Origin: an uncultured Solirubrobacteraceae bacterium
Lineage (GTDB): Bacteria; Actinomycetota; Thermoleophilia; Solirubrobacterales; Solirubrobacteraceae
Length of the DNA stretch: 64,000 bases
Assembly: GCA_963710665.1 (NCBI GenBank)
Contig: CAVQBC010000005.1
Span: 158,370-222,369, forward strand
Reading direction: 5' to 3'
Positions 1,862 through 63,490 of the stretch are shown one piece after another. The position numbers and the translations under genes are program-made. Below the pieces are notes generated by a model that was given only the letters and a program-made list of their open reading frames with translations, did no database searches and was not told where the DNA came from. Positions within the stretch are counted from its first letter, which is position 1, and each line of letters begins with the position of its first letter.

Positions 1862-2638
1862 ATGTCGTCCCTGATCGCCGCCCACCGCGGGCTGATCGCC
1901 CTCTCCTCGCGCGAGGTCGCGCGCGTCCTCAAGCTGTGGACGCAGACGGTCGCCGCGCCGATCATCTCCAGCGCGCTGTTCATCCTCGTGTTCGGCCTGT
2001 CGCTCGGCGGGCGCATCCGCGAGGTCCACGGGGTGCCCTACGAGCAGTTCATCGTGCCTGGGCTGATCGCGATGGGCATGGCCCAGGCGGCCTACGCGAA
2101 CAACTCCTCGAGCGTCTTCCAGGCCCGCTTCGACCGCTACCTCAACGACGTGCTCGCCGCGCCGATGCGCGGCTGGGAGGTCAACCTCGGCCTCAACCTC
2201 GGGGGCGTGGTGCGCGCGCTGCTGATCGGCGGCGGGCTGTTCGCGGTCGCGGTGCCGCTCACCGGCGTGCCGGTGCGCGAGCCCCTCGTGCTCGTCCTCT
2301 CCATCGTGCTGCTGCTGGCGCTGTTCTGCTCGTTCGGCGTCGTGGTCGGGGTGTACGCCGAGTCGTGGGACCAGTCGGCGTTCGTGACCAACCTCGTGAT
2401 CCTGCCGCTGTCGTTCCTGGGCGGCGTCTTCTACTCGATCGACTCGCTGCCCTCGCCGTGGCAGGAGATCTCGCACGCCAACCCGATCTTCTATCTGATC
2501 AACGCGGTGCGGGCCGGCTTCTTGGGGACGGCGGACGTGTCGGTCGCCCTCTCGCTGGCGGTGACCGCGGTGATCGCGGCCGCGTCCGTCGCCTGGAGCG
2601 TGTGGCTGTTCGCCACCGGGCGGCGGCTGAAGCCCTAG
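1862..2638 (+). CDS. ABC-2 type transporter permease
   Basis: 258 aa with six hydrophobic segments and a typical ABC-2 N-terminus (SREVARVLKLWTQTVAAPIISSALFILVFG). Probable partner of the ATPase at 160-939. Confidence 0.85.
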   Translation: MSSLIAAHRGLIALSSREVARVLKLWTQTVAAPIISSALFILVFGLSLGGRIREVHGVPYEQFIVPGLIAMGMAQAAYANNSSSVFQARFDRYLNDVLAAPMRGWEVNLGLNLGGVVRALLIGGGLFAVAVPLTGVPVREPLVLVLSIVLLLALFCSFGVVVGVYAESWDQSAFVTNLVILPLSFLGGVFYSIDSLPSPWQEISHANPIFYLINAVRAGFLGTADVSVALSLAVTAVIAAASVAWSVWLFATGRRLKP

Positions 2639-3494
2639 GCGGTCCCAGGTCGGCGAGCGCGGCGATGATCCGCCCGGCGGTGGCGGCCATCCGCCCGCCG
2701 GCGTCGGCAGCGGGCTCGTAGGCCGTGACGGCGGCCGCGGCGACCTCGAAGCGGTCGCCGACGGCGGCGAGCGCATCGAGCACCTGGCCGGCGCTCAGCC
2801 CGCCGGGCGCCGCGTAGCGGTTGGCGATCCCCTCCGCGGGGTCGAGCGCGTCGAGGTCGACGTGCAGGTAGACCCGGCCGACCCGGCCGCGCAGGTCGTC
2901 GAGCGCGGCGGCGAGGCCCGCGGCCGAGCACGCGCCGGCGGGCAGCGCCGCGATCCCCGAGCCGCCGAGGCGCTCGCGCTCGTGCGGCTCGAGGTCGCGG
3001 ACGGCCGCGAGCACGACGTCGCGCTCGGGGACCGGCGCGAGGCCGGGCACCGTGGCGCGCAGCGCCGGCCATCCGCGGCCGGTGAGCAGGGCGAGGCCCA
3101 TGGCGTCGAGCGACCCCGAGCGCGAGTCCTCCGGCGTGTCGAGGTCGGCGTGGGCGTCGAGCCAGACGATCCCGAGCCCGTCGGCCCCGACGCCCGCGAC
3201 CGTCCCGAGGCAGCTGTTGCAGTCGCCGGCGAGCACGAGCGGGAACGCGGCCTCGGCGACCGCGTCCCGCACGAGGCCGGCGATCGCGCGCGCGACCGCG
3301 AAGACCCGCGCCGCCTCGGGCGCGCCGGCGTCGGCGGGGCCGGCGACGCGCAGCGACGCCGGGCGCCCGGGGCGGGCGAGCGCGTCCGGGAGCCCGCCCG
3401 CCTCGAGCAGCCGCCCCGGGCCGCGCCCGCGGTCGACCCCGGCCAGCCCGTCGTGGTGCGGCGAGGCGATCAGCCGCAGCTCCCGGCGCCCCAT
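2499..3494 (-). CDS. arginase/agmatinase/formimidoylglutamase family hydrolase (3' end uncertain)
   Basis: Ureohydrolase metal-binding motifs are present: WLDAHADLDTPE, GSLDAMGLA and YLHVDLDALDP. The last ~45 aa are Arg-rich and overlap the convergent permease gene by 140 nt. Confidence 0.75.
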   Translation of the reverse strand: MGRRELRLIASPHHDGLAGVDRGRGPGRLLEAGGLPDALARPGRPASLRVAGPADAGAPEAARVFAVARAIAGLVRDAVAEAAFPLVLAGDCNSCLGTVAGVGADGLGIVWLDAHADLDTPEDSRSGSLDAMGLALLTGRGWPALRATVPGLAPVPERDVVLAAVRDLEPHERERLGGSGIAALPAGACSAAGLAAALDDLRGRVGRVYLHVDLDALDPAEGIANRYAAPGGLSAGQVLDALAAVGDRFEVAAAAVTAYEPAADAGGRMAATAGRIIAALADLGPPRASAAARWRTATRSRRRTRPRSPRSPPARGRPTRPPSPRSRPAPR

Positions 3495-3545
3495 CGGCGG
3501 ATTGTGCCCGGCGCCGGGCGGCTCGCGGCTAGGGCGGCGGCGTGC

Positions 3546-4553
3546 CTACTCCCGCCCGTCGAGCCACTCGCGCATGGAGATCGGGCGCTCCGAGTACTCG
3601 CCGGTCTCGAGCTCCCGCCGCAGCTCGTCGAGCATCCCGAAGCGCTCGGCGACGACGTTGTGCTGGTGGATCGTCTCGAGGTTCTCCTGGCGGGCGGAGA
3701 CGAAGTGGCGGTCGGTGAGATGCCCGAAGGCCTCGACCACGCCGCGCACCATCTCGCGCACGCAGTCCTCGACGAAGCGCGGGCGCCGGTGGGCCTTCTC
3801 GACCACCAGGCCCTCGTCGGAGCGCTTCATGAGCTCGTAGATCTCCGACGACATCGAGGACTCGACGATCTCGAGCAGCGTGAGCGCGTTGATGTCCGTC
3901 TCGCAGTTCTCGGGGCAGCCGATGTACAGCGTGCCGAGCCCGCGCTGGTTGTGGGTCGCCACGGGGACCGCGGCGAGGATGCGGCCGATCTCCTCCTCGG
4001 AGAAGCCGTCCTCGAGCAGCCGCTCGCGCGAGCGCGCCGCGACGAGCGTCTGCGCGCACGGGCACGCCGTCATCCCCTGCGCGGTCACGCCGCTCAGCCG
4101 GCGCGTGCCGGCGGCCGACGCGACGGCGACGCCGTGCAGCGAGTAGATCTCCTGGGTGAGGATGCCCGACTCGGGCGCCGGCTTGTGCTCCGGGTAGCGC
4201 GCCTCGATGCGCACCTCCGCCCGGCGGGCGCCCTGCCGGTCGCGGACCTTCTCGGCGATGTGCTGCGCGAGCGTCTCGGCGCGGAAGCTCGACTCTCCGA
4301 GCACCACCTCGCCGATCGCGTCGTTGATGACCTCCTCGAACCGCGACATATGGGCCCCCTTCTGCTGGGGCCCGAGGTCGACGAAGCAGTCCAGGCGCGC
4401 CGAATAGAGCTGCTCGGTGCCGTTCTCGGAGATGCGGATGACCTTCTCGACATCGGTGACGCCGACCCGCGAGAGCGAGACCTGGAGGGTCGGCAGCTGG
4501 GACTGGACGTCCTCGACGGCGAAGGTGGTGGGGGTTCGGTCGGACGTTGGCAT
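3546..4553 (-). CDS. folE2: GTP cyclohydrolase FolE2/MptA family (type IB)
   Basis: Only the C-terminal 335 aa of the 570-aa ORF look real, starting at ATG 4551-4553 (MPTSDRT). Family motifs present: EDVQS...VGV, GMTACPCAQ and ATHNQRG. Confidence 0.85.
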   Translation of the reverse strand: MPTSDRTPTTFAVEDVQSQLPTLQVSLSRVGVTDVEKVIRISENGTEQLYSARLDCFVDLGPQQKGAHMSRFEEVINDAIGEVVLGESSFRAETLAQHIAEKVRDRQGARRAEVRIEARYPEHKPAPESGILTQEIYSLHGVAVASAAGTRRLSGVTAQGMTACPCAQTLVAARSRERLLEDGFSEEEIGRILAAVPVATHNQRGLGTLYIGCPENCETDINALTLLEIVESSMSSEIYELMKRSDEGLVVEKAHRRPRFVEDCVREMVRGVVEAFGHLTDRHFVSARQENLETIHQHNVVAERFGMLDELRRELETGEYSERPISMREWLDGRE

Positions 4554-53038: not shown

Positions 53039-54056
53039 GTGCTCGAATACCGCGCTCCACGGTCGCAGCCGGATGCGCGCGTGGTCGCCGACCGCGCGCT
53101 GCGGATCGTCGCGTTCGGCGGGGGCACCGGCCTGCCGGTCCTGCTGCGCGGCCTGCGCGACGCGCGCGCCGACGGCGTCACCGCCGTCGTGACGGTCGCC
53201 GACGACGGCGGCTCGAGCGGCCGGCTGCGCCAGGAGCTCGGCATCTCGCCGCCGGGCGACGTCCGCCGCTGCCTGATCGCCCTCGCCAGCCGCAAGCGCC
53301 TGGCCGAGGTGTTCGACTACCGCTTCGACGCGGGCGAGAACCTGCGCGACCACACGGTCGGCAACCTCATCATCGCCGCGCTCGTGGACATGTCCGGCGG
53401 GTTCGCCGAGGGCGTCGAGCGGGCGGCGCGCTTCCTGCGGGCCCGGGGCCGCGTGCTCCCCGCGGCCGTCGAGCCGCTCACGCTCGTCGTCCGCTACGCC
53501 GACGGCACCGAGAGCGTCGGCGAGTCGACGGTGCGCGAGGCCGGGCGCGTGGTGGAGCGCGTGCGGGTGGAGCCCGCCGGCGCCGCCGCGCCCGCTCCCG
53601 TGCTCGAGGCGATCGCGGGGGCCGACGTCGTCGTGCTCAGCCCCGGCAGCCTGTTCACCAGCACGATCCCCGCGCTCCTGGGCGCCGGGCGTGCCGGACG
53701 CGCTCGCCCGCTTCGCCGGTCCCGTCGTCTACTGCGGGAACCTCATGACCCAGCCGGGGGAGACCGCGGGCTTCACGCTGTCCGACCACCTGAAGGCGAT
53801 CGCCTCGCACGTCGGGCCGGTGGTCACCGACGTCGTCGTGCACGGCGCGGCGCTGCCCGCTGCCGTGCTCGAGGCCTACGGGGCGGAGGGCGCCGGGCCG
53901 CTGACGATCGACGCCGCCGAGGTCGAGCGGATGGGGCTGCGCCTGCACGAGGCCGTGCTGACGGCGGACACGCCCGGGTCCGAGGCGCGGCACGACCCGG
54001 CCCGGCTCGCGCGGGCCGTCCAGGCGCTCGCGCGCGACGCCGCCGCGTCGCGGTAG
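53039..54056 (+). pseudogene. YvcK/CofD-like (UPF0052, gluconeogenesis factor) protein with a +1 frameshift
   Basis: IVAFGGGTGLPVLLRGL...VADDGGSSGRLR...VVLSPGSLFTSTIPALLGAG, then VPDALARFAGPVVYCGNLMTQPGET in the next frame. The junction is at GCC GGG C GTG (53687-53690). Confidence 0.75.
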
Positions 54057-54105
54057 ACCGGCGCCGCCACTCGACCCCCGCCCGCGGGCGGGCGAGAATG
54101 GCCCC

Positions 54106-55754
54106 ATGGCGACGAAGCGGCTGGCCGGCGGCGGCTGGGCCGAGCTCGCCGCGGGCCGGTGGGCCGCGGCGCGGACAGCGTTCGCGGAGGCCGTGGCGGC
54201 CGAGGAGACGGCGCGAGGGCTACGAGGGGCTGAGCTGGGCCGCGTGGTGGCTCGACGACGCCGCCCTGGTGTTCTCCGCGCGAGCGCGCGCGTACCGCCT
54301 CTACCGGCGGGCGGGCGACGCCGGCGGGGCGGCCCGGATGGCGACCTGGCTGGCCTGCGACGAGCTCGACTTCCACGGCGCGGGCACGGTGGCGGGCGGG
54401 TGGCTGGCGCGCGCCCACCGGCTCCTCGACCCGCTCGAGCCGTCCTCCGACCACGGCTGGCTCGCCTTCCTCGAGGGCTACATGGCGCACGCCGGCGGGG
54501 ACAGCGCGACGGCCGCGCGGCTCGCCGGCGTCGCCGCCGGCCTGGGTCGCCGCTTGGGCGTGGTCGACCTCGAGATGCTGGGGCTCGCGCTCGAGGGCGC
54601 GACGCACGTGGCGTGTGCCCGCGTCCCCGAGGGCATGCGCTGCCTCGACGAGGCCACGGCCGCGGCGCTGGAGGGCGACGCGGAGATCCCCATCGCGGGC
54701 GCGTGGGTCTTCTGCTTCCTGGTGAGCGCATGCACGGCGGTACGCGACTACGAGCGCGCCTTCGCGTGGTGCGACCGGATCGCCGAGTTCGCCGAGCACT
54801 ACGGCAGCCGCTACATGCTCGCCTTCTGCCGCGCCGAGTACGGGGCGGTGCACCTGTGGCGCGGCCGCTGGGAGCAGGCCGAGGAGGTGCTCGCGGCCTC
54901 GGTGGAGGACTTCGCGCAGTCACGCCCGGCGTGGTCGCCGCTGCCGGTCGTCGGCCTCGCCGAGCTGCGCCGCCGTCAGGGGCGCGACGCGGAGGCGCTG
55001 GCGCTGCTCGACGGGGTCGGGCCGTCCGCCTCGGCGCAGCTCTGCCGCGGGCGGCTCGCGCTCGACGCCGGCGACCGCGCAGGCGGCGCTCGACCTCGCC
55101 GAGCGGGTGCTGCGCCAGACGCCTGACGAGCGCACGCTCGACCGGGCGCCCGCCCTGGAGCTGCTGGTGCGCGCGCACGTCGCGCGCGGCGCGCTCGCCG
55201 AGGCGCGCGACGCCGCCGGCCGGCTGCGGGCGCTGGAGCAGCGGGTGGGGACGCCGGCGCTGCGTGCGGGCGCGGACCTGGCGGAGGGGACCGTGGCCGC
55301 CGCCGACGCCGACCACGAGGGCGCACGTCCGCTGCTCGAGGATGCCGTGGACCGCTTCGAGCGCAGTGGCGGGCCGTACGACGCCGCCCACGCGCGGATC
55401 GCGCTTGCCACGTGCCTCGGCGCCCTCGGCCGCACCGCCGAGGCCGAGCGCGAGGCGGCCGTCGCGCTGGCGCGGCTGACCGAGCTGGGCGCGGCGGCGG
55501 ACGCCGAGCGGGCGCGGCGGGTCCTCCGTGCCGCCGCGGGCGAGGCGGTCGTGCGCGAGCCGACGCTCACCCCACGCGAGCGCGACGTCCTCGGCCTGCT
55601 CGCCGAGGGGCTCACCAACCGCGAGATCGCCGCGCGGCTGGTCGTCAGCGAGCACACCGTGCACCGCCACGTGACGAACATCCTGCGCAAGCTCGACCTG
55701 TCCTCGCGGACCGCGGCGGCCGCCTACGCCGTCCGCGCCGGCGTGCTCGAGTAG
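54106..55754 (+). pseudogene. large LuxR-family regulator (TPR-like N-domain plus C-terminal HTH) with two +1 frameshifts
   Basis: Three consecutive frames read MATKRLAGGGWAELAAGRW..., then ...EGYEGLSWAAWWLDD...[10 protein letters not shown], then ...[14 protein letters not shown]...[43 protein letters not shown]. Junctions are near 54214 and 55076. Confidence 0.7.
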
Positions 55755-55838
55755 CCCGTCGTGGCCATCCGCCCGCGGCCGCGAAGATGGCCAGAACGGG
55801 CGAAGCGGCGGGGGGCCGGGCCGGCGTACGGTCGGGGC

Positions 55839-56705
55839 ATGGAACGACTGGAGGCATCGGCCCGAGCGATGGCGGAGGCCCCGTCCGGCCCCAAGCAGGC
55901 GGCGCGGGCGATGTGGGCGCTCGGCGACTACCACCGCTTCGCGACCGCGACGGTCTGGGGCCTCGGGGCCGAGCTCGTCGCGGCCTGCCGCATCGGCGCG
56001 GGGGACCGCGTGCTCGACGTCGCCGCCGGCACCGGCAACGTCGCCCTGCGGGCGGCCGAGCGGGGCGCGCGCGTCGTCGCCTCTGACCTGACCCCGGAGA
56101 ACTTCGTCGCCGGCCAAGGCGAGGCGCGGACGATGGGCGTGGAGCTCGAGTGGGCGGAGGCGGACGCCGAGGCGCTGCCGTTCGCCGACGGCGCCTTCGA
56201 CGTGGTCACGTCATGCCTCGGCGCGATCTTCGCCCCCGACCAGCGCGCGGTGGCCGGCGAGATGCTCCGCGTGTGCCGGCCGGGCGGCACGATCGGGATG
56301 ATCAACTTCGTCCCCGACGGCACCGCCGGCGCGTTCTTCGACCTGGTCGCGCGCCACGCCCCGCCGCCGCCCGCCGGCGCGCAGCCGCCGACCCTGTGGG
56401 GCAGCGAGGCGCACGTGCGCGAGCTGTTCGGTGACCGCGTGTCGTCTCTCGAGATGACGCGCCGCAGCTACGTCGAGCACAGCCCCGGCGCCGGGCGGGC
56501 CGTCGACTACCGCGAGCTGTTCAAGGCGACGTTCGGGCCGCTGGTCGGGCTCTACGCGAGCCTGGCCGGGCAGCCCGCGCGGGCGGCCGCGCTCGACCGC
56601 GACTTCCTGGACTTCGCCGAGCGCGAGAACGTCGCCCCGCCCGGCAGCCCCGCCGAGTACGAGTACGGGTACCTGCTCGTGGTCGCCCGCAAGCGCCGCG
56701 CCTAG
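55839..56705 (+). CDS. class I SAM-dependent methyltransferase
   Basis: From ATG 55839: VLDVAAGTGNVALRAA, FDVVTSCLGAIF and RPGGTIGMINF. Confidence 0.8.
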   Translation: MERLEASARAMAEAPSGPKQAARAMWALGDYHRFATATVWGLGAELVAACRIGAGDRVLDVAAGTGNVALRAAERGARVVASDLTPENFVAGQGEARTMGVELEWAEADAEALPFADGAFDVVTSCLGAIFAPDQRAVAGEMLRVCRPGGTIGMINFVPDGTAGAFFDLVARHAPPPPAGAQPPTLWGSEAHVRELFGDRVSSLEMTRRSYVEHSPGAGRAVDYRELFKATFGPLVGLYASLAGQPARAAALDRDFLDFAERENVAPPGSPAEYEYGYLLVVARKRRA

Positions 56706-56941
56706 CGCGACGTGCTGCGTTGGCGCGTCCCGTCCTCGAGCATGTCGACGAGCGCCTCCGCCGCCTCGAGGGCCTGGGCGTCGTCGATCAGATCGATCGG
56801 GTCGGTGCCGGGCTGGTGGCGGGTGGCGTCGAACGCCTCCCGGCGCGCTCGCAGGGCTTCGATCGCCCGTTCGCGCGTGTGCTCGTGCGGTGTGGACGTG
56901 CGCTGCCTCGGGTGGGCGCGGAGGTGCGATGGCGCGAACAT
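56702..56941 (-). CDS. small hypothetical protein (weak call)
   Basis: 79 aa from ATG 56941, with an acidic helical C-terminus (DPIDLIDDAQALEAAEALVDMLEDG). No recognised family. Confidence 0.2.
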   Translation of the reverse strand: MFAPSHLRAHPRQRTSTPHEHTRERAIEALRARREAFDATRHQPGTDPIDLIDDAQALEAAEALVDMLEDGTRQRSTSR

Positions 56942-57118
56942 GGAGAACAGGATGACGCGTGAGGTCCGCCGGTGCGACTGACAACCGGTCGGAGTTGTGA
57001 CCTTCGACGCATCGACCATTGGTCCAGGCGCCCTCGGGCTCGCCCAACCCTGGTAAACGGTCGATCGATCATCCGAATTTCAATCGGTTGACAAGGTGGG
57101 GCGCGGGATACTCGTGGC

Positions 57119-58294
57119 GTGCGGCATCGCTCGCCTCTGGCTCGGAGGGCAGGAGCGTGCCTCGGCGTGGCCGGCGTGCTGGCCGCGCTGGGCGCCTGCC
57201 CATCGGCATCGCTCGCTTCTGGACTCGCAGACGTCCCCGCGGCGCCGGTCGCGGCTGACGTGCCGGCGCCGGTCGCGGCCGACGTACCGGCGCCCGCCGC
57301 GACCGTGGCGGACGTCGTGCAGACGGCGACCACGGCCGCCCCCGCCCAGCCCGCCTCGCCGGCCCCGGTCCAGCGCGCCGCCGCCTCGTCGCCGGTCACG
57401 AGGCCCGCGACCGCCGCCGCATCGCCGGCGAGGGACGCCACCCCCGTTCGGCGGGCGATCGCGCCGGCGCGGGACGCCGCCGCCACGCCGGTTCGGCGCG
57501 CCGCGGACCCGGCCGCGCCGGCGCGGCACGTCGCCGCCCCGGCGAGGAACGCCGTCCGGCGCGCCGCCGGCGCAGCCGCTCCGGTGAAGGACGTCGCGGC
57601 CCCGGTCGTCCGGCGCGCCGCCGAGACGGTCGCGCCGCTCGTCGAGGACGCCACCGACGCGACCCGTCCGGTGACGAGCATCGCGACGGGCCTGGTCGAC
57701 CGCGTGGCCGGCTCGCTCCCGGGCTCCGCGCGGAGCCTCCTTCCCGGGGTGACCGGCGCGTTCGCCCCGATCGCCGACCCGGCCTTCGCTCCGGCGTCGC
57801 CGCTCGCCGCCCCGACCGTCGCCGCGGCGACGCCCGCCGACGGTGGCGCCGTGCTCGGCACGCGCGCCGAGTCGGTCGCGGGCGGGCGGAACGCGCGCGC
57901 CGTACCGCCGCCGACGTCGGCGGCGGTCTCGGCGCGGCCCGGCACCTCCGCCTCCGCGGCCACTGACCGCGGTCACGGCCACACCCGCCGGAGCGTGCCC
58001 CGGCGCGGGCCTCCGCCGCGCCCACGCCTCCACCGGAACGGGCGCCCACCACGGGCCCGGGGCCGATCCCGGCCGGCGGCACCGGATCCGTCACGGTCTT
58101 CTTCCTCTTCCTCGCGCTGGCCGCCGGCCTCGCGACCCGCCGGGCGCCCGCCACCGCGTGGCGCCTGCGGGTCCCGCCGGCCCTCTTCCGGCCTGCGCTC
58201 TTCGTGCTGGTGCCAGAACGGCCCGGCTAGCCCCTTCGGGGTCAGCCACAGGCCGCGCCGGGGGCCCCTTCCCGGCATCAGACACCAACACTGA
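57119..58294 (+). CDS. secreted Ala/Pro-rich repeat protein (C-terminal third uncertain)
   Basis: Signal peptide RRAGACLGVAGVLAALGACPSASLA, then ADVPA(A)PVA repeats and A-x-PVRRA repeats. After ~57950 the frame becomes Arg-rich and unconvincing. Confidence 0.5.
   Translation: MRHRSPLARRAGACLGVAGVLAALGACPSASLASGLADVPAAPVAADVPAPVAADVPAPAATVADVVQTATTAAPAQPASPAPVQRAAASSPVTRPATAAASPARDATPVRRAIAPARDAAATPVRRAADPAAPARHVAAPARNAVRRAAGAAAPVKDVAAPVVRRAAETVAPLVEDATDATRPVTSIATGLVDRVAGSLPGSARSLLPGVTGAFAPIADPAFAPASPLAAPTVAAATPADGGAVLGTRAESVAGGRNARAVPPPTSAAVSARPGTSASAATDRGHGHTRRSVPRRGPPPRPRLHRNGRPPRARGRSRPAAPDPSRSSSSSSRWPPASRPAGRPPPRGACGSRRPSSGLRSSCWCQNGPASPFGVSHRPRRGPLPGIRHQH
57227..57318 (+). repeat. approximate 24-27-nt tandem repeats encoding ADVPAPVA units
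   Basis: gcagacgtccccgcggcgccggtcgcg / gctgacgtgccggcgccggtcgcg / gccgacgtaccggcgcccgccgcg. Boundaries are approximate. Confidence 0.5.
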
Positions 58295-58310
58295 AGACAA
58301 GGAGCAACTC

Positions 58311-59378
58311 GTGAGACGACATCGCCTCGCACTGCTTGCGAGCGTCGTCGCCCTCGGCGCCTGCGCGAGCCCGGCCTCGGCCGCGGACGTCCCCGGCGTC
58401 ATCGGAGGAGCGACCGACCAGATCGTGCAGCAGGGCAACACCGCCAACGGCGGCAACGGCGGCGACCACACCACCGGTGGCGCCGGCGGACCGGCCATCA
58501 CCGGCAACCAGCAGGTGCTCGACGGCAACGCGGTCGGGATCGCGCTGCCGGGCGGCGGCGCCGGCGCCCAGGGCGGCGACACCTCCGCCACCAGCGGGGA
58601 CGCGACCGGCGGCGACGGCGGCGGCGCAAGCGCCGACGGCGGCGACGGCGGCGCGGCGTCCAACTCCGCCCGGACCCGCCCGTCCGGCGGCGCGTCGGTC
58701 GGCCAGGGCGGCAACTCCGCCGACGGCGGGGACGGCGGCGACCACACCACCGGCGGCGACGGCGGGCCCGCGAGCACCGGCAACGTCCAGGCGCTCAACG
58801 GCAACGCGGTCTCCGTCGGCGGCAAGGCCCGCGGCGGCGACACCCGCGCCAAGAGCGGCGACGCCAAGGGCGGCGACGGCGGCAAGGCCCGCGCCGACGG
58901 CGGCGACGGGGGCAAGGCCTCCAACGACGCCGAGGTCGACCGCAGCCATCGGAAGGGTCACCGCGGCAAGGACCACGGCGACCGCGGCAAGGACCACGGC
59001 GACCGCGGCAAGGACCACGGCCACCGACCCAAGGGCCACGACACGCCCCGCCACTGGAGCGGCCTGCCCGCCCCGGCCGCCACCCTCATCGAGCAGGGCG
59101 GCAACACCGCCGACGGCGGCGACGGCGGCGACTTCGCCACCGGCGGCAAGGGCGGCGACGCCTGGACGGGCAACCACCAGGTCGCGAACGGCAACGCGCT
59201 CGCCCTCGGCGGCGGCGCGAAGGACCGCTGCTCGCACTGCGACCACACCAGCGCCGCCGGCGGCGACACGCACGCCAAGAGCGGCGACGCCGACGGCGGC
59301 GACGGCGGTGACGCCGGCGCCGACGGCGGCGACGGAGGCAAGGCCTCCAACGACGCCGAGGTCGGCGACCACCACTGA
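58311..59378 (+). CDS. secreted Gly/Asp/Asn-rich protein with three ~75-aa modules and a His/Lys/Asp heptad tract
   Basis: GTG 58311 follows AAGGAG. Signal RRHRLALLASVVALGACASPASA. Modules read QGGN(T/S)A(N/D)GG(N/D)GGD..TGG.GG.A.TGN.Q...GNA...GGDT.A.SGDA.GGDGG...ADGGDGG.ASN.AEV, three times. Confidence 0.7.
   Translation: MRRHRLALLASVVALGACASPASAADVPGVIGGATDQIVQQGNTANGGNGGDHTTGGAGGPAITGNQQVLDGNAVGIALPGGGAGAQGGDTSATSGDATGGDGGGASADGGDGGAASNSARTRPSGGASVGQGGNSADGGDGGDHTTGGDGGPASTGNVQALNGNAVSVGGKARGGDTRAKSGDAKGGDGGKARADGGDGGKASNDAEVDRSHRKGHRGKDHGDRGKDHGDRGKDHGHRPKGHDTPRHWSGLPAPAATLIEQGGNTADGGDGGDFATGGKGGDAWTGNHQVANGNALALGGGAKDRCSHCDHTSAAGGDTHAKSGDADGGDGGDAGADGGDGGKASNDAEVGDHH
58959..59042 (+). 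repeat. 21-bp tandem repeat (3 near-perfect copies plus 1 degenerate) encoding (H/D)RGKDHG heptads
   Basis: The unit gaccgcggcaaggaccacggc occurs at 58980 and 59001, with one mismatch in the copy at 58959 and a degenerate fourth copy. Confidence 0.8.
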
Positions 59379-59398
59379 ACACGACGAACGATCCGGCT

Positions 59399-59424
59399 GT
59401 CCGGGGGCGTCCGCGCCCCCGGAC
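59399..59424. terminator. bidirectional hairpin between convergent genes
   Basis: Perfect 11-bp stem, GTCCGGGGGCG (59399-59409) and CGCCCCCGGAC (59414-59424), with a 4-nt loop. Confidence 0.55.
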
Positions 59425-59437
59425 GGCGGCCGGAGCC

Positions 59438-60223
59438 TCAGGCCTTCGCGACCAGCCGGCCCTCGAGCAGCGCGTCGCGGTCGACGTCGTCCAGCGACGT
59501 GACGAGCAGGTCGGGCTCGGCGCCGGCCAGCAACTCCTCGTCGTCGGCACGCGACAGCCCGAGCGCCGCCATCCCGCCCGCCTTGGCGGCCTGGAGCCCG
59601 TAGTAGGCGTCCTCGACCACGAAGCAGCCCGCCGGCTCGACCCCGAGCTCGGAGGCCGCGGTCAGGAAGATCTCGGGATGCGGCTTGCCCTGGGCGAAGT
59701 CGCGCCCCGAGATGTCGGCGTCGAAGAGCCCGAGCAGCGTCATGCCCTCGCGCAGGAAGTCGTAGGAGAGACCCTGCTCGGCCGCGAACGTGTCGAGCCG
59801 GATCTGCTCGAGGAAGCGCACGGCGTTCTTGGACGACGACGCGGCGGCGACCACGATCCCCGCGCCCTTGATCCCGAGCACGAAGCGCAGCGCGTCGGCG
59901 TAGGCCGTGAACTGCCCCTGCTCGATCAGCGGGATCACGACGTCCTGCTTGCGCTGGGCATAGGCCTCCACGCGCGACGCGGCGTCGGGGACCCCGAAGT
60001 AGTCCAGCGCCGCGCGGGCGCCGCTCATCCGCGGCTTGCCGGACATCACCTGCTGGTAGACCTGCGGCGTGAAGCGCTCCGGCGCCCACGTGGTCTGCCC
60101 GCGGATGTCGCTCCACTCGTCCTCCATGAGCTCGCGCAGCCCCTCGCGCCACGCCTGCTCGTGCGGCGAGTCGACCAGCACGCCGTCGACGTCGAAGATC
60201 GCGCCGCGGAACCCGTTCTGCAC
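59438..60223 (-). CDS. pgmB: beta-phosphoglucomutase-like HAD-IA hydrolase
   Basis: AIFDVDGVLVDS (DxDG nucleophile motif), SSSKN, and GKPHPEIFL...VVEDAYYGLQAAKAGGM. Sits next to a GH65 phosphorylase. Confidence 0.8.
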   Translation of the reverse strand: MQNGFRGAIFDVDGVLVDSPHEQAWREGLRELMEDEWSDIRGQTTWAPERFTPQVYQQVMSGKPRMSGARAALDYFGVPDAASRVEAYAQRKQDVVIPLIEQGQFTAYADALRFVLGIKGAGIVVAAASSSKNAVRFLEQIRLDTFAAEQGLSYDFLREGMTLLGLFDADISGRDFAQGKPHPEIFLTAASELGVEPAGCFVVEDAYYGLQAAKAGGMAALGLSRADDEELLAGAEPDLLVTSLDDVDRDALLEGRLVAKA

Positions 60224-60233
60224 GGCGCTCAGC

Positions 60234-62654
60234 TCAGCTCAGCGAGAACGCGCAGCGCCCCTTCGCGCCGAGCTCGAGTACGTGATCGCCCACGCCGATC
60301 TTGATCGGGCGGCTGAAGCCCTCGATGTGCGCGTCGACGGTCAGCTCGCCCCCGGAGAGCGCGACCTTGATCGGCGTCCCCCGGAACTGCATCGAGAACG
60401 TCAGGCCGTCGAGCCGATCCGTGAGGCGCGGGTTGAAGTACAGGACGTCGTCGCGGATCACGCTGCCCATGAAGCCGCGCTGGACGAGGTCGAGCGTCCC
60501 GGCCATCACGCCCATGTGGATGCCCTCCTTCGTCGTGCCGCCCTGCACGTCGCCGACGTCGGACTCGAGCGCAACGATGAACCGCTCCCACGCGCTCTCG
60601 GGATCCAGCGCCGCCAGCACCGCGGCGTGGGTGATGAAGCTGAGCGTCGACCCGTGCGAGGTCCGCTTGTCGTAGTAGTCGACGGTCTTGCGGGCCGTGT
60701 CGGACGTGTACTCGTAGCCGAGGCGCTCGAAGATGGCGCGCAGCTCGTCCTCGGGGAAGAGGAAGAACAGCATCACCGTGTCGGCCTGCTTGGCGAGCTG
60801 GTAGTGGTCCGGGTCGTCGCCCTCGGCGCGCAGGATCCGGTCGAGGCGCTGGATGTTGCCGTACTTCGCCCGGTAGGCCTCCCAGTCGAGCTCCTTGAGG
60901 TCCTCGTAGCCCTCGAACTGGCTGATGATCCCGTCGCCGTGGAACGGGATGAACATCTTGCGGCTCATCTCCTGCCAGGTCTGGATCTCCTCGTCGGTGA
61001 GGCCGATCCGGGCGGTCAGCGCCTCGCAGCGGCTCTCGGGCAGGAGCGTGAGCACCTGCTCCGCGGTCTCGGCGATCCACGCCGCCATCACGTTCGTGTA
61101 GGCGTTGTTGTGCAGGCCGCCCTCGTCGGCGTCCGGGTACTTCTCGTGGAACTCGTCCGGACCCATGACGCCGTGGATCTCGTAGCGGTCGCGCTCGGCG
61201 TTGTAGTGCGCGATCGACGCCCAGAAGCGCGCGATCTCGAGCATCATCTCGGCGCCCTTGTCGCGCAGGAACTCGACGTCCTCGGTCGCCTGGTAGTAGT
61301 GCCAGACGTTGTAGAAGATCGCCGCGTTGACGTGGCGCTGGTTGTGGCTGAGGTCGGGCTCCCACGTCCCCGACAGCGGGTTGAGGTGGACGACCTGCGT
61401 CTCCTCGGAGCCGTCGCTGCCGCTCTGCCACGGGTACATCGCGCCCTTGTAGCCCGCCTGCCGGGCCGCCGCCCGGGCCTCGCCGAGACGCCGGTAGCGG
61501 TACATGAGCAGCTCGCGCGTGATCTCGGGCAGGCGGAAGTTCAGGAACGGATACACGTAGAGCTCGTCCCAGAACACGTGGCCGCGGTACGCCTCGCCGT
61601 TGAGCCCGCGGGCGGGGACGCCGGCGTCCTGGTCGGCGGTATGCCGCGAGCAGACCTGCAGCAGGTGGGAGATGTGCAGCCGCAGGAGCAGCTGCACCCG
61701 CTCGTCGCTGGGGAGGACGAGGTCGCAGGAGCGCCACAGCTCCTCCCAGGCGCCGGTATGGGACTTGAGCGCCTCGGGGAAGCTCGGGTAGCGCACGGCG
61801 GACTTGCCGGCGTTGGTCAGCGGCTCGTTGATCGCCCGGTCGTGCGACGTGTAGAACGCCACCAGCTTCTCGGCCCGCACGGGGACGCCCTGCTGCGCGT
61901 CCACCGCGAGCACCTGCTGGATGTAGTCCTCCATCTGGTAGAGGCTGCGGTCGGGCGTGGCGCGCTGCCCGTCGACGTAGAGGTCGGTGCGGGCGGCCTC
62001 GGCGATGTAGAGGCCCGACTGGCGCGTGCGGACCTTCACCGCGATCACCTCGGGCCCGAACGTGCGCGGGGAGACGGGGTCGAGGTGGCGGCCCTCGAGC
62101 TGGCGGTAGCGCGCGACGTTGCGGTTGGTCACCCGCCCGTCGAGGGCGGAGACGATCTCGAGGCGCCCCGACCAGTTCTCCGGCGTGACCGTGAACTCGA
62201 TCGCGGCCTGGTGGACGTGGGCCATGCTGACGAAGCGGCGGCTGCGCAGCGTCGTCTCGCGGCCGGCCCGGTCGCGGACGCGCAGCGCGCGCGTCACCAG
62301 CGCATAGCGCACGTCGAGCTCGTGGCGGTAGTCGAGCAGCTCGCAGTTGTCGAGCTCGAGCGCCTCCTCGCCGTCGATGCGCACCTTGAGGACGAGCCAG
62401 TTCGGGAGGTTGACGAGGTCCTCGTTGAGGACCGGCCGCCCGCCCAGGATCGTCGTCTCGCGGTTGTAGCCGCCGTGCGCGTAGGTGCCGGGGTAGTGGA
62501 CGTCGCTCGCGTCCTCCCACTCCATCGTCCCGCGCGTGCAGAAGTAGCCGTTCCCGGTCGAGGCCAGCGCCTCGCGCAGCCCCTCCTCCTTGGGCTCGAA
62601 GCTGTCGTAGGCGAGCGTGAATCCGACGGCTGGAGCGTCTTCTGTCGCGGTCAT
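60234..62654 (-). CDS. glycoside hydrolase family 65 phosphorylase (trehalose/kojibiose/maltose phosphorylase type)
   Basis: 806 aa from ATG 62654: NGYFCTRG, GLNGEAYRGHVFWDELYVYPF, MYPWQSGSDGSEET, HNNAYTN and KQADTVML. Confidence 0.9.
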   Translation of the reverse strand: MTATEDAPAVGFTLAYDSFEPKEEGLREALASTGNGYFCTRGTMEWEDASDVHYPGTYAHGGYNRETTILGGRPVLNEDLVNLPNWLVLKVRIDGEEALELDNCELLDYRHELDVRYALVTRALRVRDRAGRETTLRSRRFVSMAHVHQAAIEFTVTPENWSGRLEIVSALDGRVTNRNVARYRQLEGRHLDPVSPRTFGPEVIAVKVRTRQSGLYIAEAARTDLYVDGQRATPDRSLYQMEDYIQQVLAVDAQQGVPVRAEKLVAFYTSHDRAINEPLTNAGKSAVRYPSFPEALKSHTGAWEELWRSCDLVLPSDERVQLLLRLHISHLLQVCSRHTADQDAGVPARGLNGEAYRGHVFWDELYVYPFLNFRLPEITRELLMYRYRRLGEARAAARQAGYKGAMYPWQSGSDGSEETQVVHLNPLSGTWEPDLSHNQRHVNAAIFYNVWHYYQATEDVEFLRDKGAEMMLEIARFWASIAHYNAERDRYEIHGVMGPDEFHEKYPDADEGGLHNNAYTNVMAAWIAETAEQVLTLLPESRCEALTARIGLTDEEIQTWQEMSRKMFIPFHGDGIISQFEGYEDLKELDWEAYRAKYGNIQRLDRILRAEGDDPDHYQLAKQADTVMLFFLFPEDELRAIFERLGYEYTSDTARKTVDYYDKRTSHGSTLSFITHAAVLAALDPESAWERFIVALESDVGDVQGGTTKEGIHMGVMAGTLDLVQRGFMGSVIRDDVLYFNPRLTDRLDGLTFSMQFRGTPIKVALSGGELTVDAHIEGFSRPIKIGVGDHVLELGAKGRCAFSLS

Positions 62655-62659
62655 GCCGC

Positions 62660-63490
62660 TCAGCGTGCCAGCTTGTCCAGACACCGCTCCACCTCTTCGA
62701 TCGAGTTGAGGACGAAATCGGCCGCCGTCGCACGGCCCGCGACCTCGGGATCGTCGGGATCGCCGACGAAGATTCCGATACCCCGGTCGCTGAGCGCGGC
62801 GAACGCGTCCTCGTCGGTGATGTCGTCCCCGAAGAACAGCGGCGTGACATCGTCGCGGTCGAGCCCCAGCGCCCGCACCAGGTACAGCACGGCCTTCCCC
62901 TTGTCCCAGTCGAGCTTGGGCTGCAGCTCGAAGACCATCTTGCCCGGCGTGACCTTGAGGTCGTCGGGGTGCTCGGCGAGCAGCTGGTCCACCACCTCCT
63001 TGACCGCCGGCCGCTGGTCCTCTGCCACGAGCCGGTAATGGGCCGCGACCGAGACCTTCTTCTCCTCGACCAGCGTCCCCGGGATCCCGTCGAGCGCCTC
63101 GTGCAGCCGCCCGGTCACCTCCCGGATCAGCTCCTCGCTGCCCTGGCCGGCGTCGTGCTCGAGCGTCCCCTCGGACGGGCTCCAGATGTCGAATCCATGG
63201 CTGCCCGCCACCACGAGGTCGTCGACGCCCATCAGCTCCTGGACGACCTTGCGGTCGCGGCCGCTGACCACGCAGACCGTGCAGCGCTTGGCGAGATCGC
63301 GCACGACCCGGCGCATGCTCTCGGAGATGACGGCGTCCTCGGGGCGGTCGACGATCGGCGTCAGCGTGCCGTCGTAGTCCAGGAAGACGGCCGGTTCCCG
63401 ACGGTCCAGCCGGCGTTCGAGCTCTCCGAAGTCGGCCAGCGCGTTGGGCAGCTCGCGGATGCTCGTCGCCGCCATGTGCGCCCGCAGCAT
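62660..63490 (-). CDS. otsB: trehalose-phosphatase
   Basis: FLDYDGTLTPIV, VSGRD and FFGDDITDEDAF (HAD-IIB OtsB motifs). Confidence 0.9.
   Translation of the reverse strand: MLRAHMAATSIRELPNALADFGELERRLDRREPAVFLDYDGTLTPIVDRPEDAVISESMRRVVRDLAKRCTVCVVSGRDRKVVQELMGVDDLVVAGSHGFDIWSPSEGTLEHDAGQGSEELIREVTGRLHEALDGIPGTLVEEKKVSVAAHYRLVAEDQRPAVKEVVDQLLAEHPDDLKVTPGKMVFELQPKLDWDKGKAVLYLVRALGLDRDDVTPLFFGDDITDEDAFAALSDRGIGIFVGDPDDPEVAGRATAADFVLNSIEEVERCLDKLAR

Follow-up and report, generated by a model that had tools for sequence, protein, structure and literature searches.

The described systems closest to the locus reported here resemble either its protein or its RNA. RTX proteins (PF00353) are extracellular and Gly/Asp-rich, contain GGxGxD strings arranged as tandem 9-mers with short strands joined by Gly turns, and carry a C-terminal type I secretion signal. 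In the curli (CsgA/CsgB), Fap and TasA/TapA systems, a secreted N/Q/G repeat protein is encoded beside a putative anchor or nucleator gene. Chaplins are secreted surface proteins of actinobacteria with a hydrophobic domain of about 40 amino acids (aa) that includes a Cys pair; in Streptomyces, the long forms are wall-anchored and the short forms are free. PE_PGRS proteins, also actinobacterial, and the polyglycine-II (PPII) antifreeze proteins share a Gly-rich composition with GGx triplets. At the RNA level, the rpmI-rplT pair of E. coli, with a spacing of +52 nt, is an established case of translational coupling by RNA unfolding, in which the end of the upstream open reading frame (ORF) pairs with the ribosome-binding site (RBS) region of the downstream gene (PMC12548453). 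We analysed a 64,000-nucleotide stretch of contig CAVQBC010000005.1 from an uncultured Solirubrobacteraceae bacterium (the window) and found that the gene at 58311-59378, called here the cargo gene, encodes a Sec-exported protein with three modules of ~80 residues rich in Gly, Asp, Asn and Ala, and is the downstream gene of a conserved cassette composed of three parts: a membrane-anchored partner ("stalk") protein, a structured RNA of ~130 nt and the secreted repeat protein. This three-part unit is undescribed in the databases and literature searched. Indeed, the module, the tail of the partner and the RNA each lack a description in Pfam, NCBIfam, Rfam, PDB and the literature searched, and nothing relevant was found in the literature on GGDGG and Solirubrobacterales surface repeat proteins.

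The partner gene and the intercistronic RNA, which an earlier note made from the letters of this DNA had not linked to the cargo, are the most informative features of the locus. Among related loci of species-representative genomes, 31 of 40 have the partner directly upstream of the cargo gene in the same orientation, its ORF ending 100-250 nt before the cargo gene; the same arrangement was found in loci L002 and L004. Intact partners have 330-520 aa and consist of a signal peptide, a long low-complexity ectodomain of Ala, Pro, Thr and Val, a single transmembrane (TM) helix and a C-terminal tail. The C-terminal part is the recognisable one, with the hydrophobic helix followed by basic residues and by a conserved tail of ~30 aa, ...RPxPF(V/I)xx(L/I)ERPG and stop, which reads ...LFVLVPERPG in the window. 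Pfam and NCBIfam contain no model that matches the partner proteins. In one homologue of the cargo (P0012) there is no separate partner, and the protein has its own Pro-rich stretch with LPFTG, a hydrophobic segment and RRR.

The DNA between the last ~15 codons of the partner and the start of the cargo gene is conserved across divergent loci. A covariance model of this region (R1; 135 positions, 31 pairs) was used, as misalignment of the variable hairpin made RNAalifold miss most helices when it was run on the raw MAFFT alignment. Of 44 sources, 38 have a match to the model, a single one per locus and invariably at the junction; they include nine loci outside model building as well as the window, where the match (64.5 bits, E 2e-12) is the sole copy in the genome. 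The Rfam search with the element returned only chance-level matches (E of at least 0.58). Independent minimum free energy (MFE) folds of 29 sequences show a common architecture: five helices, one branch point and two internal hairpins. In these folds, UCU within the F-V-C codons of the partner pairs in an outer helix with the AGG of the GAAAGGA Shine-Dalgarno (SD) sequence at most homologous loci, GCUCGAG (A-L-E codons) pairs in helix P1 with CUCGAGC immediately 5' of the SD, and CCCUGG (P-G codons) pairs in helix P2 with CCAGGG; the variable hairpin comes right after the stop codon and the second hairpin is closed by GCCGGG...CCCGGC. Helices 1-3 engage the last ~9 codons of the partner and its stop, and their 3' strands abut or cover the SD.

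Pairing statistics were computed on an alignment fitted to the covariance model, which favours the structure: 87.5% of the cells are paired, against 29-49% when the partners are slid, 18 pairs have changed on both sides, and none of 500 shuffles reaches any of the measures. We argue that the covariation signal is real in spite of this fitted alignment, since the slid controls and the independent MFE folds agree. G-U pairs outnumber A-C pairs (80 versus 39), as one would expect of a transcribed strand. Some of the covarying sites are synonymous positions within the P-G codons (CCU/CCA versus CCC/CCG), so that the conservation of the "ERPG" end is in part a constraint on the RNA.

We propose that the cassette is a translationally coupled anchor-plus-cargo surface unit, the cargo of which would be a beta-rich and probably cation-binding repeat protein, and we give this reading a probability of about 0.5; our confidence is much higher for the composition of the cassette than for coupling, display and cation binding, to which the sequences point, and for the fold, to which structure prediction points. 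A ribosome finishing the stalk gene would melt the outer helices of the RNA and free the RBS of the cargo gene, and by this unfolding the cargo would be made only together with its anchor. After export, each module would fold into a small all-beta unit made of 3-8-residue x-Ala-x strands linked by Gly-Gly turns. Divalent cations would be bound by the Cys pair, the His-rich linker and the acidic turns of the GGD type, and the stalk, anchored in the membrane and spanning the wall, would keep the protein at the cell surface. The conserved pairing of the upstream ORF end with the downstream RBS region was indeed found, as in rpmI-rplT, and in both cases the spacer measures tens of nucleotides. The cassette RNA differs from rpmI-rplT in being a conserved multi-helix element with internal hairpins, reused before unrelated cargos and belonging to no Rfam family.

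This reuse became apparent in the other genomes of the order. At E<=1e-5 the RNA model matches 29 of 151 such genomes, and a single genome may have as many as 4 copies; outside the order, it matches none of about 125 genomes of the same class. In family f2, 15 of 18 genomes have a match, though this family is devoid of the Gly/Asp module. At 13 such loci (L062-L073 come from genomes G242, G201, G283, G215, G088, G258, G206 and G208), most of the upstream ORFs that can be read in frame end with a TM helix and ...(I/L)(E/D)xPG and stop, and the downstream gene mostly starts with a similar signal peptide, followed by proteins that differ from locus to locus (Table 1). The gene pair in the window therefore represents one type of cargo within a general unit, "anchor tail + RNA + secreted repeat protein". 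In some of the cargos, a signal peptide is followed by a pair of PG_binding_1 domains, then by a TM helix and finally by a resolvase and a recombinase domain; judged by this domain order, such a protein looks like a membrane-tethered serine recombinase.

Because the same tail-plus-RNA block is reused before unrelated cargos, it suggests a general, lineage-specific way to build and diversify the cell surface. We tentatively extend this to the view that "anchor tail codons + structured RNA + signal peptide" might form a portable, order-wide socket for the display, on a stalk anchored in the membrane, of many secreted repeat proteins that evolve fast and are unrelated to one another. It would then represent a new kind of surface-display operon and a new class of cis-acting RNA coupling cargo synthesis to anchor synthesis, with cargos perhaps exchanged between sockets by recombination and with the Gly/Asp module as a new cation-binding beta fold; we consider this wider view possible but doubtful as a whole. 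Solirubrobacterales and other Thermoleophilia are abundant in soil and almost no experimental cell biology exists for them. The conserved gene pair hints at how these monoderms may attach surface proteins without sortase, and the structured RNA between two cistrons, overlapping a coding end, could serve as a compact natural model for long-range translational coupling.

Table 1. Features of the window cassette (window positions) and cargos of other tail-plus-RNA loci (positions within the named locus)
Feature	Position	Strand	Basis or remark
Segment of 5.4 kb absent from same-genus genome G023	54020..59423	.	flank comparison
Partner gene (signal peptide, Ala/Pro-rich repeats, C-terminal membrane helix, conserved tail)	57119..58230	+	frames, shift in third-position GC (GC3), homologues
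TM helix of partner	58090..58134		
Stop codon (TAG) of partner	58228..58230		
Conserved structured RNA (last 15 codons and stop of partner, intergenic region, cargo RBS and start)	58183..58313	+	covariance model R1
Shine-Dalgarno AAGGAG of cargo gene	58299..58304	+	sequence
Cargo gene (P0001), secreted Gly/Asp/Asn/Ala-rich three-module protein, 355 aa	58311..59378	+	ORF, RBS, translation, GC3, homologues
Sec-type signal peptide, aa 1-24, predicted cleavage after ASA	58311..58382	+	read from sequence
Module 1, aa 38-120	58422..58670	+	module profile, 62.9 bits
Module 2, aa 130-207	58698..58931	+	module profile, 65.5 bits; predicted local confidence 72-80 in core (AlphaFold2)
21-bp tandem repeat, 3.9 copies, His/Lys/Asp/Gly-rich linker (H/D)RGKDHG	58960..59040	+	Tandem Repeats Finder
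Module 3, aa 260-349	59088..59357	+	module profile, 71.4 bits
CSHCDH, aa 307-312, variable loop of module 3	59229..59246	+	sequence; homologues usually CxC (CGC) there
L062 cargo, N/Q/S/G modules with Cys pairs			hhalign to Gly/Asp module null
L064 cargo, module faintly like Gly/Asp module			hhalign probability 23% (weak)
L065 cargo, (GDEKDGHGDENHH)n			
L066, L071 and L072 cargos, acidic T/N/E/D/Q modules with CERC			
L068 cargo, PG_binding_1 protein (one of L068 and L070 fused to resolvase)	2648-4354	+	
L069 cargo, repeats ending LPLTG			
L070 cargo, PG_binding_1 protein	2570-3895	+	
L073 cargo, serine recombinase-like (resolvase-type) protein	2604-	+	judged from sequence

The cargo ORF is a real coding gene. 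It starts with GTG, six nt after its SD, and its frame has a third-position GC of 0.91-0.99 along the gene, compared with 0.57-0.78 at the other two codon positions; since GC3 is high in its frame, the ORF is coding and not a high-GC shadow ORF. Homologues with 40-58% identity were found, and together with GC3 and the RBS they rule out a shadow-ORF or artefact reading. The N-terminus (RRHR, LALLASVVALGA and ASPASA followed by AD) is a Sec-type signal, in support of the proposal of the earlier note that the protein would be exported in this way. A by-eye fit to [LVI][ASTVIG][GAS]C reveals a lipobox-like L-G-A-C at aa 15-18; homologues have Ala or Thr at this Cys position, with an AxA site downstream. 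The string ALGAC occurs in the signal peptides of both genes of the window cassette (58353-58364 and 57185-57196), and the two proteins also share the mature end ADVP; the Cys is absent from homologues elsewhere. The mature protein is composed of 29% G, 14% A and 12% D and ends in ...EVGDHH; a sortase signal (C-terminal LPXTG, hydrophobic stretch, basic tail) is absent from P0001.

The anatomy given in the earlier note was recovered in full. A profile hidden Markov model (HMM), seeded on the protein's own repeats, placed the three modules as listed in Table 1. The 21-bp repeat coding for (H/D)RGKDHG is present between modules 2 and 3 (period 21, 91% matches, score 127) in a linker that is predicted to be disordered, and CSHCDH is present in module 3. 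The statement that type I secretion genes are missing nearby also agrees with the neighbours, which are a LuxR/TPR regulator, a methyltransferase, the partner gene, a HAD hydrolase and a GH65 gene.

The modules define an undescribed protein family restricted to Solirubrobacterales-type soil actinobacteria. Searches retrieved 13 homologues among 5.8 billion clustered proteins and 44 among 1.84 billion representatives of 50%-identity clusters, none with an informative name; their only taxon labels are Thermoleophilaceae, Solirubrobacterales, Solirubrobacteraceae and "uncultured Actinomycetes" soil metagenome-assembled genomes, and all carriers found are uncultured metagenome-assembled genomes. 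The module profile matches 22 of the 401 genomes of the window's order (10/122 in family f3, 9/122 in f4 and 2/122 in the window's own family), concentrated in a few genera, with one gene per genome among the matches listed; the window genome has a single copy. The 52 related proteins together contain 113 module copies, and 198 were counted in related loci; a single protein has between 1 and at least 16. The consensus covers ~80 positions, xQG(D/G)NxAxGGx(G/A)xAxGG(D/N)GGxAx(T/S)GNxQxxNGN(A/S)xAxx in its first half, then a variable loop, then xAxAxGGDTxAxSGDAxGG(D/N)GG(D/N)AxAxGGD(A/G)xAxN. About 20 positions are at least 95% conserved, the near-invariant residues being G, A, N, Q, S and T, and hydrophobic residues occur at only about 6 positions. 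The resemblance between modules is thus beyond chance, since this ~80-position unit recurs in 52 proteins with ~20 near-invariant positions. When the two halves of the module were aligned to each other with hhalign, they shared only a 10-column GGDGG match.

Several variations within the family were noted. An N-x-S/T string (SNESxVxQG) opens each module in most homologues (P0002-P0019, L013-L051), and the last module is enriched in Trp, Phe and Tyr and often ends with ...VFQLNxxWKGGxL; the window protein has neither feature. An "uncultured Actinomycetes" subclade (L032, L040, L048 and L050) comprises giant versions of at least 1767 aa and at least 16 modules, with acidic linkers free of Cys and His and a different signal peptide (MGKKRNIATGALIF...); in these four loci the partner gene and the RNA element are both absent.

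Across the family, Cys and His-rich motifs are confined to loops and linkers: Cys amounts to 0.1% in module cores, 4.7% in intramodule loops and 2.5% in linkers. Close Cys pairs are of the CxC type in 114 of 126 cases, and the CxxC of the window protein is a rare variant at a site where homologues carry CxC. His/Lys/Asp/Gly linkers like that of the window recur in homologues with differing sequences, and 7 of 41 family proteins have no Cys. Because the His-rich linkers and Cys pairs recur in homologues, the metal-binding look of the cargo, already suspected from the single protein, appears strengthened as a family trait.

AlphaFold2 was run twice on the cargo, with alignments of 14 and 79 rows. 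The mean predicted local distance difference test score (pLDDT) was 55 in the first run, with an all-beta model, and 57 in the second, with 72-80 in module cores and less than 50 in the signal peptide and linkers. The models contain only short beta strands that map to the xAx(T) segments between Gly-Gly turns, so that the predicted module fold is all-beta, with short strands and Gly turns. The earlier note did not recognise the protein as a described family and this still holds: searches of Pfam, NCBIfam and PDB sequences with the cargo protein gave no match even at E<=10, a PDB profile search with a 45-module alignment gave no chain at E<=10, and Foldseek with the AlphaFold2 model gave no significant match to PDB structures, the best rows having a probability of at most 0.01 and a query template modelling score (TM-score) of at most 0.07. 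These rows included FapC at the top (E 0.68, TM-score 0.05), RTX block V (E 5.9, probability 0.00, TM-score 0.03) and the springtail and snow-flea PPII antifreeze proteins (7jjv and 2pne; E 1.1-5.3, probability 0.01). A module with such chemistry (Gly turns, Asp/Asn, Ala-only strands, His and CxC loops) and without relatives in Pfam, NCBIfam and PDB suggests a new small cation-binding beta fold.

Other accounts of the protein were weighed against this one. One account, which we hold to be quite unlikely, sees the cargo as a calcium-binding beta-roll of the RTX type that has diverged and now leaves the cell by Sec export instead of type I secretion. The Gly/Asp richness of the protein, nonapeptides such as GGDGGDHTT and GGKGGDAWT, the predicted short strands split by GG turns and the presence of RTX block V among the Foldseek rows all recall RTX proteins, but the scores of that row make it meaningless, the PDB profile search was empty and HemolysinCabind (PF00353) has no match on the cargo at E<=10. 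The genome's own RTX repeats provided an internal positive control here, as the whole-genome scan yielded 41 matches on contigs C3, C4, C6 and C7 and none at the cargo gene (C5:216680-217744); the genuine RTX sites of this genome are at C4:147-150 kb, C4:260-262 kb, C7:269-271 kb, C7:4-5 kb, C3:1052 kb and C6:559.7 kb. The resemblance proposed in the earlier note therefore stands at the level of strings (one strict GGxGxDxUx nonapeptide, GGKGGDAWT, and four that match only GGxGxD) and is not supported as kinship. Indeed, in the family consensus GGDGGxAxT, position 7 is an invariant Ala, position 6 varies and the "hydrophobic" position 8 is D, N or S, the nonapeptide register is lost through a module of ~80 aa, and export relies on an N-terminal Sec signal and not on a C-terminal type I signal with ABC and MFP genes. 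Kinship with chaplins, of which GN..Q..GN strings were said there to be faintly reminiscent, is not supported either: the chaplin profile (PF03777) has no Pfam match on the cargo, the whole-genome scan was negative in a setting where no control genome was positive, and the core of the module is hydrophilic and free of Cys, in contrast to the chaplin domain. An amyloid or beta-solenoid fibre of the curli, Fap or chaplin kind, with the upstream membrane protein as its nucleator or anchor (as for CsgB, TapA or the long chaplins), is unlikely too. It would fit the two-gene genetics of anchor plus subunit, the module edges NxSxVxQG(G/D)NxAxGG and NxAxVxQxN, which recall the curli repeat Sx5QxGxGNxAx3Q, the N/Q/G/S-rich repeats among other cargos behind the tail-plus-RNA block and the top Foldseek rank of FapC, though not significant. 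Against this, Curlin_rpt (PF07012) matches neither the cargo nor any place in the genome (0 matches, E. coli control positive), the FapC row has the poor values given above, the modules are very acidic with long charged linkers between them, which disfavours stacking, and polymerisation finds no support in our results; moreover, the host is a monoderm without CsgG-type export and the cargo has no homology to its partner, which is a type I membrane protein rich in Pro and Ala. It is very improbable that, in place of beta structure, the modules form bundles of PPII helices as PE_PGRS domains or the antifreeze proteins of springtails do: the many GGx triplets and the antifreeze rows of Foldseek speak for it, but those rows have the low scores quoted, the GGx period is interrupted every 6-9 residues by conserved xAxT/xAxA strands, AlphaFold2 assigns beta strands, Pfam finds no PE domain and export is by Sec and not by ESX. 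The cargo is thus no member of the RTX, curli or PE_PGRS groups and probably no chaplin, and may still work like a Ca-binding Gly/Asp scaffold.

Two further accounts concern the linkers and the junction. If the main role were extracellular buffering or sequestration of Cu, Zn or Ni by the His-rich and Cys-pair linkers, the modules would be mere spacers. The recurrence of these linkers and of CxC pairs across the family while their sequences drift, the extreme (GDEKDGHGDENHH)n cargo of the sister cassette L065 and a CsoR-type repressor with an HMA gene about 4-7 kb from one homologue are in line with such a role; however, the modules and not the linkers are the conserved part, proteins without Cys and the Cys/His-free linkers of the "uncultured Actinomycetes" subclade exist, and no metal genes are conserved among the family neighbours, which makes it improbable. 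Similarly, the 130-bp junction could be a DNA-level recombination or homology block (tail, junction and signal peptide) for cargo swapping rather than a regulatory RNA. It precedes unrelated cargo genes with several copies in one genome, the cargo signal peptides are alike across types, in two cassettes (L068 and L073) the gene directly downstream codes for serine recombinase domains, and the window cassette sits in an indel. Conversely, compensatory changes preserve pairing and not sequence, the excess of G-U over A-C is as for one transcribed strand, and the 3' strands abut or cover the SD. We assign this account a low probability; a role in DNA exchange and a role as RNA are not mutually exclusive, and the former remains a live rival.

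Other observations weigh against the coupled anchor-plus-cargo unit itself. In the window copy the SD is unpaired in its own MFE fold, P1 uses a different sequence (P1 to P4 are present with altered sequence), and about 80 nt separate the partner stop from the cargo start, which is long for coupling. The window partner is frame-broken as assembled, the Ala/Pro frame (from 57119) and the anchor frame being one base apart. The interaction between stalk and cargo is suggested by gene linkage and one fused homologue only (P0012), two other giant homologues end without an anchor, and the sortase-fusion argument for surface display, with its single case, is weaker than hoped. As regards cations, the turns of GGDGG contain D in 51-60% and N in 27-28% of cases, and obligate Ca binding at these turns is doubtful because Asp is so often replaced by Asn, some homologues being almost all-Asn. 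Finally, the predicted fold is only moderately confident and matches nothing solved.

The frame break of the partner lies between the frame-1 stop at 57964-57966 and about 58089 (57967-58089), and could be an assembly indel, a pseudogene or real frameshift, or something programmed. A frame change in the opposite direction is also present in an unrelated genome (L004 2540-3700, minus strand), and many homologues are single-frame. As assembled, the long Ala/Pro frame runs through the whole RNA element to TGA at 58292-58294, 16 nt before the cargo start, and a ribosome in this frame would likewise unwind the RNA structure.

Regarding the genomic setting, no neighbour other than the partner is conserved family-wide, and synteny was seen only within one clade of about 13 loci. 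In G023, the matches to window positions 53106-54019 and 59424-63471 are only 15 bp apart; as its flanks stand this close there, the segment between them is an indel. In it, Pfam identifies a TPR/LuxR-type regulator (to 55754) and an S-adenosylmethionine (SAM) methyltransferase (55761-56705); the segment also contains a small ORF and all three parts of the cassette.

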